A stretch of 34,172 nucleotides of DNA from a virus. The number at the start of each line of letters is the position of its first letter. Within the stretch, counting starts at the first letter, position 1. The notes beneath the pieces were generated by a model. The model had not been told where the DNA came from. It ran no database searches and saw nothing but the letters and a program-made list of their open reading frames with translations. The stretch lies in UHGV virus genome UHGV-2104448. One strand, given 5' to 3'. Positions 2,750-15,991 of this stretch are shown one piece after another. A program made the position numbers and the translations under genes.

Positions 2750-2768
2750 TTGGATGCACTACCATCAC

Positions 2769-3145
2769 TTGCATGTCTTGCTATCTTATCTTCAGAGAAA
2801 ATAGTGCAAAGGTTTTTATTTGGGTGTCTTAATAGTTTAGGAAGTAAAGTTAAGGCTATTATCCACAAGGATATATCTGCAACATGGAGACTTTGTGATA
2901 TATCTTCAAGACTGTGCCTGAGTGAAAGTTTGTTAAAAAGAAAATTAAAACACGAAGGCTTATCATTTGGTAAACTAAATCTTGAAGAGCGAATGGTGAT
3001 GGCGGAAAGCTTATTAAGCTACAATTTATATTCTGTTGGGAAAGTTGCTGAGATATGCGGTTATGAAAATACGTCATATTTTGTAAGTGTTTTCAGAAGA
3101 TATTTTGGTGTTCCTCTCCACAAATATTCATCAAGATTTTTTTAG
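2769..3145 (+). pseudogene. AraC-family regulator, C-terminal HTH domain only (5' part replaced by the IS1 element)
   Basis: The ORF translation carries a typical AraC/XylS HTH (…ERMVMAESLL…VGKVAEICGYENTSYFVSVFRRYFGVPLHKY), similar to the AppY/EnvY group. The reading frame runs into the IS1 right end, and no N-terminal domain was recognised. Confidence 0.7.
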
Positions 3146-3223
3146 AAAAACACATGATGTAACGTGATGCGATTTAATGATTTTGTAATTTTCGTATTTG
3201 ATAATTTTATGATGCTTTCAGCT

Positions 3224-5330: not shown

Positions 5331-5543
5331 ATGTCTAACAAAATGACTGGTTTAGTGAAATGGTTTAACCCTGAAAAAGGTTTTGGTTTCATCACGCCGA
5401 AAGATGGCAGCAAAGATGTGTTTGTCCATTTCTCAGCAATTCAGAGCAACGATTTCAAAACATTAACTGAGAATCAGGAAGTTGAATTTGGTATTGAGAA
5501 CGGACCTAAAGGTCCTGCCGCTGTTCATGTAGTGGCGCTTTGA
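5331..5543 (+). CDS. cspI: CspA-family cold-shock protein
   Basis: 70 aa with RNP1/RNP2 motifs (KGFGFI, VFVHF). Preceded by a roughly 350-bp AT-rich leader. Paralog assignment is by position after Rz, as in Qin. Confidence 0.8.
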
Positions 5544-5747
5544 GGTAGACAATATTACAAACCATATTCACTTTAGATGCCCGTGTTGTCATGGTTCCCA
5601 GTATAGAACATCATCTTTTGATGTTTCTGACATGAATCCTTTCGGGGCAAAATGTATCTTTTGTAAATCAATGATGATTACATTTGATAATATTTCACAA
5701 TACTTAAATGCCAGCCGTCTGTCGTTGGATTTAAAAAAGTGAAAATG

Positions 5748-5771
5748 AAGGCTCCTTCGGGAGCTTTTTTG
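5748..5771 (+). terminator. Intrinsic terminator (GGCUCC-UUCG-GGAGC stem plus U-run)
   Basis: Stable tetraloop hairpin followed by TTTTTT, about 200 bp downstream of the cspI stop. Confidence 0.55.
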
Positions 5772-5816
5772 CTTGGTGTCTATTCGATGGATACTCACAT
5801 ACTACGGTAACATCAT

Positions 5817-6045
5817 GAAAAAAATCATAGTTTTTTTTAACTCTGAACCAGCAGTGGTAGTGCCAGCGATGACTGGAGTTAACACCATCATGCGTGAATA
5901 TCCAAATGGCGAAAAAACACACCTTACTGTAATGGCCGCAGGGTTTCCATCTCTGACCGGAGATCATAAAGTCATTTATGTAGCCGCGGATCGACATGTT
6001 ACTTCAGAAGAAATTCTGGAAGCAGCAATAAGGCTCTTGAGTTGA
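5817..6045 (+). CDS. Small hypothetical protein (position of ynfN in Qin-type prophages)
   Basis: ORF beginning MKKIIVFFNSEPAVVVP… (start chosen at an internal Met of the 5773..6045 ORF). No recognisable domain. Confidence 0.4.
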
Positions 6046-6213: not shown

Positions 6214-6390
6214 ATGATGAATATTGAAAACTTAAAAACAAAAGCAGAAGCAGATATTTCTGAATATATAACAAAAAAAATTATTGAACTTAAGAAAAAG
6301 ACCGGGAAAGAAGTTACCAGTATTCAGTTTACCGCACGGGAAAAAATGACGGGTCTTGAAAGCTATGATGTCAAGATTAATTTAATCTGA
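6214..6390 (+). CDS. gnsB: GnsA/GnsB-family small protein
   Basis: 58 aa, MMNIENLKTKAEADISEYITKKIIELKKKTGKEVTSIQFTAREKMTGLESYDVKINLI, with RBS AAAAGAGGAA. Below the ORF-track size cut-off; found by reading the DNA. Confidence 0.7.
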   Translation: MMNIENLKTKAEADISEYITKKIIELKKKTGKEVTSIQFTAREKMTGLESYDVKINLI

Positions 6391-6534
6391 TGTATTCAAT
6401 AATAAAATTTATCCATAAACCTCGTTTTTACGGGGTTTTGTTATATTTGAATGGTTCCGAATATCTAAATCACAATTGTTGATGGTTTTTATTAAATCAA
6501 TGCAGTCCGGCTCAGGAGTGAGAGAAGCCGGACG

Positions 6535-6966
6535 TTATGGTTTAGCGTGGTAAGATCTGTGTAGTTTTCTGGATGCTTTCAGTAAATAGTAATGAATTAT
6601 AAAGGTATAGTAATATCTTTTTTGTTCGTGGATATTTGTAACCCACCGAAAAACTCCTGCTTTAGCAAGGTTTCTTCTGTATTCCTGAAATGTGATCTCT
6701 CTGGATTTCAGCTTATTAGAGGTCGTTTCTATAAGATGCCTATCCTTTGAAAATTTGACAGACACAATGTTTTTTAGGCCCTTTAATAACACTGTATTAT
6801 CATTTTTTAATACAATATGAACATTCTCTGTGGCTAAATAGTAAATGTAATGTGAGACATTGTGACGTTTTAGCTCAGAATAAAACCATTGATAGTTTAA
6901 ATCGTTTCGAACTTTATCAAATATTTGTTTAAAAATGACTACCTGATCCATAGATAAACCTTCCAT
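6535..6966 (-). CDS. ydfO: DUF1398-family protein (YdfO-like)
   Basis: 143-aa ORF antisense to the flanking late genes. Matches the YdfO/YbcV family by recall. The true start may be the internal Met of MDQVVIF. Confidence 0.7.
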
Positions 6967-7008
6967 GTGATATGAGGGGGCGTAGTCTGCACGATTATCT
7001 AAATTGCT

Positions 7009-7242
7009 TCAATCTGGTCTGACCTGTTTTCTGAGCAATTCAGTAATGTCACTCTTTTCTTTGTTTGCTTCAGAAGAAACTCTTTTTTCTGAGCACAGTC
7101 TCCGGCGGCAGGCTTCAATGACCCAGGCTGAGAAATTCCCGGACCCTTTTTGCTCAAGAGCGATGTTAATTTGTTCAATCATTTGGTTAGGAAAGCGGAT
7201 GTTGCGGGTTGTTGTTCTGCGGGTTCTGTTCTTCGTTGACAT
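7009..7242 (-). CDS. ynfO: Small ribbon-helix-helix-like protein (DUF3950, YnfO/YlcI-like)
   Basis: 77 aa. The segment RNIRFPNQMIEQINIALEQKGSGNFSAWVIEACRRRL fits a beta-strand, helix, G-x-S/N turn, helix (RHH) pattern. Lies immediately upstream of ydfO on the same strand. Confidence 0.6.
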   Translation of the reverse strand: MSTKNRTRRTTTRNIRFPNQMIEQINIALEQKGSGNFSAWVIEACRRRLCSEKRVSSEANKEKSDITELLRKQVRPD

Positions 7243-7389
7243 GAGGTTGTCCCGTATTCAGTGTCGCTGATTTGTATTGTCTGAAGTTGTTTTTACGTTA
7301 AGTTGATGCAGATCAATTAATACGATATCTGCGTCATAATTGATTATTTGACGTGGTTTGATTGCGTAGATGCACGTTGTGACATGCAG

Positions 7390-7625
7390 ATGATAATTAT
7401 TATCATTTTGTGGGTCCTTTCCGGCGATCCGACAGGTTACGGGGCGGCGACCTCGCGGGTTTTCGCTATTTATGAAAATTTTCCGGTTTAAGGCATTTCC
7501 GTTCTTCTTCGTCGTAACTTAATGTTTTTATTTAAAATACCCCCTGAAAAGAAAGGAAACGACAGGTGCTGAAAACGAGCTTTTGGGCCTCTGTCGTTTC
7601 CTTTCTCTGTTTTTGGCCGTGGAAT
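7390..7625 (+). other. Lambda-type cos site (cosQ, cosN, cosB)
   Basis: GGGCGGCGACCT at 7442-7453 is the lambda 12-nt cohesive end, preceded by …CCGACAGGTTACG (lambda right end). Inverted Nu1-binding R-site-like elements lie at 7551-7565 (GAAAGGAAACGACAG) and 7591-7605 (CTGTCGTTTCCTTTC), just upstream of the Nu1 start. Confidence 0.8.
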
Positions 7626-7630
7626 GAACA

Positions 7631-8150
7631 ATGGAAGTCAACAAAAAGCAGCTGGCTGACATTTTCGGTGCGAGTATCCGTACCATTCAGAACTGGCAGG
7701 AACAGGGAATGCCCGTTCTGCGAGGCGGTGGCAAGGGTAATGAGGTGCTTTATGACTCTGCCGCCGTTATAAGATGGTATGCCGAAAGGGATGCTGAAAT
7801 TGAGAACGAAAAGCTGCGCCGGGAAGTTGAAGAACTGCGGCAGGCCAGCGAGACAGATCTCCAGCCAGGGACTATTGAGTACGAACGCCATCGACTTACG
7901 CGTGCGCAGGCCGACGCACAGGAGCTGAAAAATGCCAGAGACTCCGCTGAAGTGGTGGAAACCGCATTCTGTACTTTCGTGCTGTCGCGGATCGCAGGTG
8001 AAATTGCCAGTATTCTCGACGGGATCCCCCTGTCGGTGCAGCGGCGTTTTCCGGAACTGGAAAACCGACATGTTGATTTCCTGAAACGGGATATCATCAA
8101 AGCCATGAACAAAGCAGCCGCGCTGGATGAACTGATACCGGGGTTGCTGA

Positions 8151-8176
<26 letters not shown>
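7631..8176 (+). CDS. nu1: Terminase small subunit (Nu1)
   Basis: 181 aa, MEVNKKQLADIFGASIRTIQNWQEQGMPVLRGGGKGNEVLYDSAAV…, near-identical to lambda Nu1 as recalled, including the N-terminal HTH. Confidence 0.9.
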
Positions 8177-11857
<3,681 letters not shown>

Positions 11858-15413: not shown

Positions 15414-15991
15414 ATGGTCATAAAAGGTCTTGAGCAGGCCGTTGAAAACCTCAGCCGTATCAGCAAAACGGCGGTGCCTGGTGCCGCCGCAATGGCCATT
15501 AACCGCGTTGCTTCATCCGCGATATCGCAGTCGGCGTCACAGGTTGCCCGTGAGACAAAGGTACGCCGGAAACTGGTAAAGGAAAGGGCCAGGCTGAAAA
15601 GGGCCACGGTCAAAAATCCGCAGGCCAGAATCAGGGTAACCGGGGGGATTTGCCCGTAATAAAGCTGGGTAACGCGCGGATTGTCCTGTCCCGACGCAGG
15701 CATCGTAAAAAGGGGCAGCGTTCAGCCCTGAAAGGTGGCGGCAGCGTGCTTGTGGTGGGAAACCGTCGTATTCCCGGCGCGTTTATTCAGCAACTGAAAA
15801 ATGGCCGCTGGCATGTCATGCAGCGTGTGGCCGGGAAAAACCGTTACCCCATTGATGTGGTGAAAATCCCGATGGCGGTGCCGCTGACCACGGCGTTTAA
15901 ACAGAATATTGAACGGATACGGCGTGAACGTCTTCCGAAAGAGCTGGGCTATGCGCTGCAGCATCAACTGAGAATGGTAATAAAGCGATGA
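15414..15991 (+). pseudogene. Z: Tail completion protein Z, reading frame split by a 1-nt frameshift
   Basis: Two overlapping ORFs (15414..15659 in frame 0, 15650..15991 in frame 2) together cover a gpZ-like sequence. The total span is 578 nt (not a multiple of 3), one short of the 579 nt of lambda Z as recalled. The shift lies at about 15630-15660, beside a G6 run at 15642-15647. Confidence 0.7.

Follow-up and report, generated by a model that had tools for sequence, protein, structure and literature searches.

Two short genes that run against the surrounding late genes close to the cohesive-end site of a lambdoid prophage raise the question whether they act together, i.e., as a toxin-antitoxin pair or as a regulator with a lysogen-expressed effector (original prediction), or merely lie side by side. 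The window, i.e., the complete analysed stretch of 34,172 nucleotides (UHGV virus genome UHGV-2104448), represents a Qin-type lambdoid prophage of Escherichia coli integrated at ydfJ and shares 99.6-99.9% identity with strains CX12 and S1. The favoured explanation, with an estimated probability of about 0.6, is that the two genes are separate accessory (moron-type) genes of lambdoid phages situated between lysis cassette and cos, rather than a functional pair.

Locus layout and gene identity

The first gene, ynfO (7009-7242, minus strand), encodes a 77-aa protein of the YlcI/YnfO family (DUF3950; PF13132, E=2.7e-21; NF041551). It is followed on the same strand by a frameshifted copy of ydfO (6535-6951/6966; DUF1398; PF07166, E=8e-42), the annotated start of which is the second ATG (MDQVV, 6951) rather than that at 6966, leaving 57 bp between the ynfO stop and this ATG. 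Both are genes already catalogued as named y-genes of E. coli K-12, and ydfO and ynfO are also the RefSeq names in the matching 99.9%-identity region of S1 and CX12. The predicted layout of two minus-strand genes opposing the flanking late genes, with ynfO directly upstream of ydfO and both near cos, agrees with the open reading frame coordinates, the Pfam matches and the annotation of CX12, where all annotated genes from holin through tail fibre are plus-stranded except these two. The pair is flanked by cspI-ynfQ-ynfR-ynfN-gnsB on one side and by nohA/Nu1 and terminase on the other. The cohesive-end site cosN (GGGCGGCGACCT; 7442-7453, plus strand) is 200 bp away from where ynfO starts; next come the cosB R sites and, downstream of these, Nu1 (7631-8176, plus strand), with an inverted repeat (I1, 7550-7606) between cosN and Nu1.

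The same organization is known from the Qin prophage of K-12 (ynfO, b4533; ydfO, b1549), where YnfO is identical, the spacing is the same and gnsB and nohA likewise form the flanks. Unlike K-12 Qin, the window carries a private 1-bp deletion in ydfO and keeps the full head and tail module.

The spacer of 57 nt between the two genes (6952-7008, minus strand) is in frame with both of them (one TGA, 19 sense codons), and contains no terminator-like structure (RNA folding z=+2.0). A natural TGA-to-TGG exchange, which fuses ynfO and ydfO into one protein of 233 aa, is known (P0002) and rare; in our view, the shared reading frame is a coincidence. Directly 3' of the ydfO stop, a stem-loop (6505-6533, minus strand; dG -15.2 kcal/mol, z=-4.0) has a terminator-like appearance but a weak T-run, and failed the consensus terminator scan. 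Since the spacer is unstructured and in frame and lacks a terminator, and since a strong hairpin follows ydfO, the latter is probably read from the ynfO transcript.

Two further elements may bear on regulation. Nested dyad symmetries (inverted repeats I2 and I4; 7304-7344, i.e., 60-100 bp upstream of ynfO) form a candidate operator/promoter region. Lambda and DLP12 show conservation of this region, in contrast to the DNA preceding the ynfO copy of Stx phages. No confident operator can be assigned, because the scan for sigma-70 consensus promoters yielded none on the minus strand and the dyads are not conserved upstream of the Stx-phage copy. The second element is a palindrome resembling a PdhR box (AACAGGTCAGACCAGAT; 7012-7028, minus strand) located 3'-terminally in ynfO; it belongs to a leader of ~80 nt that accompanies ydfO/ybcV, and the region is homologous to DNA upstream of ybcV in DLP12.

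The YnfO and YdfO protein families

YnfO is 100% identical to WP_001368374.1 and belongs to its family by both curated models (PF13132, 75.6 bits vs. a cut-off of 25; NF041551, YlcI_YnfO_N, 36.6 vs. 30). The protein consists of a basic N-terminal arm, a putative ribbon-helix-helix (RHH) core (residues ~14-56) and a C-terminal tail specific to the Qin lineage. Its N-terminal 49 residues are invariant, whereas the tail after residue ~49 varies by genomic context, the Qin-type tail occurring only where ydfO adjoins. Comparison of ynfO with its Stx-phage counterpart gave a pS of 0.47 and a pN of 0.078 (pN/pS ~0.17), and third codon positions account for 24 of the 37 variable sites; this substitution pattern identifies ynfO as a genuine gene subject to purifying selection. 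Conservation of DUF3950 as a mere DNA element near cos was rejected on account of these third-position substitutions and the pN/pS ratio, and is also contradicted by a DUF3950 gene adjoining an unrelated packaging module.

The RHH-like pattern of strand, helix, turn and helix that had been recognized in YnfO is retained as far as its shape is concerned. The AF2 monomer model displays a coil/extended segment (residues 1-18), a helix (19-32), a turn at G33 and a second helix (34-56), with a pLDDT of 85-87 in the core. In Foldseek, this model matched best with ParD proteins, which are antitoxins of the RHH type, and with a TCP domain, though never significantly (E of at least 1.6). Sequence-based comparison did not add statistical support: searches of the PDB with the single sequence and with a profile yielded only a chance match to uL16, BLASTP found no significant match to Arc or Mnt (hhalign probability 0.6%), and DUF3950 alone was matched in Pfam at E values up to 10. 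DNA binding of the RHH type is accordingly plausible for YnfO from the modelled shape, but not statistically shown. With ParD-ParE and the Arc/Mnt proteins of phage P22, YnfO has in common its size, the basic N-terminal arm, the predicted strand-helix-turn-helix succession and an NxRxP-like strand motif. It differs from them by the lack of a significant sequence, profile or fold score, by having no conserved partner gene and by a C-terminal tail that is not conserved. Weak tblastn matches to YnfO in Pasteurella phage Pmp7 and in vB_KppS-Ant were dropped, since they are on the strand opposite to annotated genes.

Canonical YdfO corresponds to PDB entry 2HH8, an NMR structure from structural genomics. 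The YdfO model contains an internal duplication, with two repeats of two helices and three strands each. The fold is an orphan without resemblance to known toxin folds, and a Foldseek search of BFVD returned nothing below E=0.02. The DUF1398 family is small (214 representatives at 50% identity among 1.84 billion proteins), and all genuine, non-contaminant loci from a scan of one genome per species are from Enterobacteriaceae. The same fold family includes YcgX, encoded beside bluR/iraM, and relatives in Kluyvera, Pseudocitrobacter, Raoultella and Salmonella (32-49% identity), which share the motifs YIYY.AT.N, AGVF[RK]W and DNxLL with the YdfO family. In contrast to ydfO, the YcgX-type genes stand alone at diverse non-phage sites that lack DUF3950.

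The ydfO copy of the window scores 142.5 bits against PF07166 (cut-off 22), confirming its membership in DUF1398. The match spans only profile positions 1-110 of 119, since the C-terminal part is lost by a frameshift. When aligned with the canonical allele, the copy shows a 1-bp deletion (one C of the plus strand) between 6600 and 6601. As a result, the last 19 YdfO residues are exchanged for 21 others and the gene ends with the shifted-frame stop at 6535 instead of the canonical stop at 6542, the protein being identical to K-12 YdfO up to residue 117. The segment lost comprises the DNxLLxxExI motif, which is kept down to homologues of 25% identity, as well as the final β-strand (121-126) of the YdfO model. 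This allele was not encountered in any of 5426 complete E. coli genomes (best match 99.2%, the difference being the gap itself), nor was the frameshifted protein found in a collection of 15 billion proteins. Devoid of the conserved last β-strand, the window copy is therefore probably a pseudogene or a sequencing error, and the product encoded here is probably non-functional, as judged from the sequence. A second single-base frameshift in the window splits a gpZ-like tail gene near 15636, and the ydfO lesion is therefore attributed to prophage decay or sequencing error. A separate natural frameshift allele of ydfO is represented by P0083/P0404. Programmed frameshifting in ydfO was considered and rejected, since ydfO alleles are normally in the zero frame and a motif found throughout the family is lost in the shifted tail.

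Distribution of the two genes and origin of their adjacency

The supposed co-occurrence of the two genes across prophages did not hold, since they proved to be largely independent: DUF3950 is present in 155 phage records as compared to 43 with DUF1398, and solo loci of both are common. Stx-converting phages contain DUF3950 only, facing Rz. Among viral contigs with enough flanking DNA, 52 of the 75 Stx-type DUF3950 loci are devoid of DUF1398, and solo genes of this type are followed downstream by opposite-strand Rz, endolysin, lipoprotein or Ant open reading frames. In phage YYZ-2008, Rz and an HNH-TerS-TerL module without relationship to Nu1 flank the antisense DUF3950 gene, which again faces Rz. 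About 30 chromosomal DUF1398 loci, retrieved from the contigs of one genome per species with an alignment of 5 sequences as query, have no DUF3950 within 10 kb. They belong to Escherichia, Citrobacter, Kluyvera, Pseudocitrobacter, Raoultella and Salmonella and have varying neighbours, some of them in neighbourhoods without phage genes; in K-12, ycgX (DUF1398) stands alone beside ymgL, ymgK and iraM. Matches in Pseudomonas, Brevibacillus, Flavobacterium and other genera were discarded as contamination with lambda DNA or sequencing control (contigs of 48.5 kb and ~3.5 kb). Copy numbers differ as well, with 7 ynfO-like places and 1 ydfO-like place in O157:H7 strain TR01 and 2 and 3, respectively, in a K-12-like strain.

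Direct adjacency was encountered in the one-genome-per-species scan only at Qin-type loci of Escherichia and Shigella; at loci of the lambda/DLP12 type in the same scan, DUF3950 and DUF1398 are separated by a gap of ~660 bp. Near-identical Qin-type relatives (at least 96% identity) have the pair together in 76-79 of 80 loci, with a gap of ~60 bp, which is due to shared ancestry only. Given this proportion, lineage-specific functional coupling of ynfO and ydfO in Qin may occur. Overall, three gene arrangements were seen in addition to solo forms of each gene, and ynfO and ydfO are distributed independently in the sampled genomes and phage records.

How the two genes became neighbours in Qin is apparent from a comparison with DLP12 (blastn). 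Positions 7080-8300 of the window, from the ynfO core through Nu1, share 98% identity with DLP12, and positions 6523-7029, comprising ydfO and the leader of ~80 nt, share 85% identity with ybcV and its leader. The 50 bp in between (7030-7079, ynfO codons ~55-70) have no match in DLP12 and form a Qin-specific junction, where DLP12 and lambda possess 609 bp with ybcW/lambdap79; homologues of ybcW or bor were not found in the window. The first ~54 codons of ynfO and the 389 bp up to the start of Nu1 are ~98% shared with lambda and DLP12, and the last ynfO codons are homologous to the untranslated ybcV leader. The Qin-type tail of YnfO is therefore explained by the mapped recombination junction together with the homology to the ybcV leader, and the apparent ynfO-ydfO cassette represents a lambdap79-less allele of the lambda right end. 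Breakpoints at three other loci coincide with the same junctions: two of them (L150, L185) carry DUF1398 and a divergent ybcW beside another terminase without DUF3950, and in the third (L059) ynfO is followed by IS5. Hence, the ynfO core and ydfO plus leader move independently of each other.

In DLP12, ylcI and ybcV (both minus strand) are split by ybcW (plus strand), the lambda equivalent of which is lambdap79. The ylcI gene of lambda (NC_001416, ~48112-48303, minus strand) encodes a DUF3950 protein with the first 49 residues identical to YnfO, and lambda and DLP12 resemble Qin in the distance of this gene to Nu1 (389 bp) and to cos. Their DUF1398 protein (lambdap78/ybcV) is 79% identical to YdfO and is preceded by a homologous leader of ~80 nt. 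The difference resides in the 609-bp segment between the genes and in bor following them, as opposed to 50 bp and no bor in Qin. Lambda-vir was reported to lose lambdap79, apparently via recombination with Qin, with the phage remaining viable (preprint 10.64898/2026.09.04.749371); hence, a Qin-type right end does not preclude lytic growth. As it stands, the locus amounts to a routine identification, and its layout to a lineage-specific rearrangement rather than a module.

Expression and possible roles

No functional study of the DUF3950 or DUF1398 family was found in the literature; transcripts and phenotypes are on record. The ydfO mRNA increased ~100-fold after ionic-liquid shock (PMC4077768), and ybcV mRNA decreased 10-fold in a pdhR mutant, with genomic SELEX peaks of PdhR at ybcV/ybcW and at ynfO/ydfO (PMC7660256). 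Up-regulation of ybcV was also observed in a sabinene-tolerant strain from adaptive laboratory evolution. In broad terms, the data agree with the assumption that the two genes are accessory genes whose expression does not depend on late transcription: both are oriented antisense to it, and regulated ydfO/ybcV transcripts are known from the cryptic prophages of K-12. Over-expression of YbcV from a viable ASKA clone resulted in glycogen-deficient colonies, a phenotype class that includes the toxins hokA and yoeB (PMC2853380), and may have mild effects on growth. The lambda homologue of ydfO, lambdap78, is non-essential by CRISPRi and gave no plating phenotype (PMC10695390). The neighbouring lambdap79 activates the NADase defence system Vulcan, and its loss gives escape (preprint 10.64898/2026.09.04.749371). 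A published claim of protection against oxidative stress by over-expressed YdfO was dismissed, as it could be traced to confusion with yfdO of prophage CPS-53; the study cited for it (Wang et al. 2010) concerns yfdO and never mentions ydfO.

According to the favoured explanation, ynfO would be part of the conserved right genome end and encode a small basic protein, most likely a dimeric DNA binder of the RHH type that may serve as transcriptional regulator. The ydfO gene and its leader of ~80 nt would constitute an independently mobile low-GC gene, with YdfO as a soluble orphan-fold protein dispensable for lytic growth. Its expression from the prophage would be under control of the host (PdhR, stress), and on the basis of such control YdfO probably modulates host physiology. 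In Qin, the presence of 50 bp in place of the 609-bp segment with lambdap79/ybcW and the region upstream of ybcV would have set ydfO 57 bp from ynfO, making their probable co-transcription an accident of rearrangement. The locus has several features of a moron: it is positioned between Rz and cos, the GC content of ydfO is 32% vs. 54% for the terminase genes, and presence/absence varies. The morons bor and lom similarly reside between late modules, are transcribed in opposite direction or independently, have a low GC content, are dispensable for plaques and show presence/absence polymorphism, but differ by their outer-membrane products and by phenotypes that are known for them.

A type II toxin-antitoxin system, with YnfO as RHH antitoxin/autorepressor and YdfO as toxin of a new fold, is highly improbable. 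The layout suggested by the original prediction, i.e., a small DNA-binder preceding a 136-aa protein at short spacing in a prophage, is indeed present, but each gene is widespread without the other and an opposite-strand gene lies between them in lambda/DLP12, such that a conserved co-occurring bicistronic unit was not found. The restriction of the Qin-type YnfO tail to loci with ydfO would fit such a system, yet this tail is accounted for by the recombination junction. The ParD antitoxins among the best YnfO matches in Foldseek would fit as well, though non-significant, and YdfO belongs to no known toxin fold or family and has no PADLOC match. Inactivation of ydfO by frameshift in several strains (window copy, P0083/P0404) would likewise fit; solo chromosomal DUF1398 genes are, however, intact in many genera. 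Furthermore, YdfO is said to have been produced alone in E. coli for the NMR work on 2HH8, which also argues against a toxin. Since direct adjacency is confined to one phage lineage, ynfO-ydfO is not regarded as a toxin-antitoxin pair, and this idea can be dropped on comparative grounds.

An obligate pair of regulator and effector likewise does not agree with the data, each gene commonly occurring without the other. A looser relation, in which YnfO is a prophage repressor specifically controlling ydfO/ybcV as lysogen effector, appears unlikely. It would be consistent with the orientation of both genes against late transcription, with the dyad symmetries upstream of ynfO, with distances of less than 1 kb between the genes in lambda, DLP12 and Qin, and with the strongly condition-dependent expression of ydfO. 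However, the majority of DUF3950 genes are not followed by a gene on the same strand, and regulation of DUF1398 genes without any DUF3950 occurs at chromosomal loci and next to other terminases. Moreover, the ybcV/ydfO leader contains a site for the host regulator PdhR, and the DNA upstream of ynfO is not conserved in Stx-phage copies.

Still less likely is a role of one or both genes in conflicts between phages or with the host (superinfection exclusion, anti-defence, decoy). One may point to the triggering of Vulcan by the neighbouring lambdap79 and escape by its loss through Qin recombination, as well as to the segment between Rz and cos being a hotspot of variable low-GC cargo (bor, gnsB, csp genes). 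The right end of lambda is also packaged last and injected first, which speaks for such a role. Evidence to the contrary comes from the defence models of PADLOC-DB 2.0, none of which matched YdfO, YnfO, GnsB or YnfN at E values up to 1, from the literature, where no link of either family to defence was found, from the knock-down of lambdap78 without plating phenotype, and from DUF1398 genes residing also in non-prophage chromosomal contexts. The labelling of phrog_413 as head protein and lambda records that speak of a head protein or putative envelope protein would make YdfO a component of virion or envelope. This can practically be disregarded, given that ydfO is antisense to the late operon, that its lambda homologue is non-essential and that DUF1398 also occurs in chromosomal loci without phage genes. 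YdfO is moreover a soluble protein of monomeric size with an NMR structure and has no N-terminal hydrophobic segment.

Compared to these alternatives, the explanation by two separate accessory genes is preferred. Irrespective of any pairing, the Qin arrangement is of interest as a right end lacking lambdap79, the gene whose loss a 2026 preprint ties to escape from Vulcan. One may further speculate that YlcI/YnfO is a regulator at the boundary of lysis and packaging genes, active in lysogens or early post-injection, with DUF1398 as an effector of orphan fold, either modulating the host or involved in conflict, that is sometimes under its promoter; this proposal is held only tentatively and considered rather unlikely. 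If true, the YnfO/YlcI regulator would be a new element in a very well studied phage. Antisense genes for YlcI/YnfO proteins are also found where lysis and packaging genes meet in phages with unrelated terminases, and in lambda the conserved ylcI gene, unannotated in the reference record NC_001416, is located 199 bp from the right cohesive end.

Partner genes of ydfO and relatives of YnfO

Across the contigs searched, the steadier partner of the DUF1398 gene (ydfO in the window) is a divergently oriented ybcW/lambdap79 gene (e.g., L150:5507-5713, L185:2390-2596 and L003:5881-6087) rather than the DUF3950 gene (ynfO), and this pairing is also encountered next to non-Nu1 terminases. lambdap79 has been described as trigger of the Vulcan defence system (2026 preprint, 10.64898/2026.09.04.749371). 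Since ynfO and ydfO lie in one reading frame, separated by 19 sense codons, fusion of the two is possible; indeed, a natural YnfO-YdfO fusion protein (P0002; 233 aa), arising from a TGA-to-TGG change, is encoded on 6 contigs.

A 64-aa YlcI/YnfO homologue, identical to YnfO in residues 1-49, is encoded on the minus strand of phage lambda (NC_001416, ~48112-48303; L165:193-384), 199 bp away from the right cohesive end. The reference lambda record contains no feature for this homologue; it is annotated in some newer lambdoid records. Contigs of 48.5 kb or ~3.5 kb consisting of phage lambda DNA (L165-L184, L187, L191, L197-L199 and L204), some of them labelled as plasmids, were found in many GTDB species-representative assemblies of unrelated taxa (among them Pseudomonas, Brevibacillus, Flavobacterium, Cohnella and Shewanella) and most likely represent sequencing-control or spike-in contamination.

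With respect to the function of YdfO, increased oxidative-stress resistance upon its over-expression is stated in PMC4077768 with reference to PMC3105296. The claim is a mix-up of gene names: the genes reported on in the latter paper are yfdK, yfdO and yfdS, which belong to prophage CPS-53, and ydfO does not occur in it.

Further features flanking ynfO and ydfO

The gene gnsB (6214-6390, plus strand), which converges with ydfO and has the cold-shock cluster cspI-ynfQ-ynfR-ynfN (5331-6045) upstream of it, is labelled "GnsA/GnsB family addiction module toxin" in both RefSeq and Pfam. Should a toxin-like gene be sought in this segment, gnsB is the annotated candidate. Its counterpart in E. coli CX12, a strain with a near-identical prophage locus, lacks 1 bp relative to the window (at 6273). 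Between cosN and Nu1, an inverted repeat (26 nt, 85 % complementary) is present at 7550-7606, which corresponds to the terminase-binding R-site region (cosB) known from lambda.

Integrity of the prophage

Besides that in ydfO, a second frameshift is present in the window: a 1-bp deletion near 15636 breaks the gpZ-like tail gene (15414-15991), unbroken in CX12 (192-aa product), leaving one ORF at 15414-15659 and another at 15650-15991. This second lesion points to prophage decay or sequencing errors.

In the CX12 counterpart of 2055-2749 and 2765-3162, a gene with an HTH domain, situated upstream of the lysis genes, is broken by IS1; immediately to the left of the window, the early region is replaced by IS3. 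On account of these two insertion elements, the prophage is defective, even though its head and tail module is complete.
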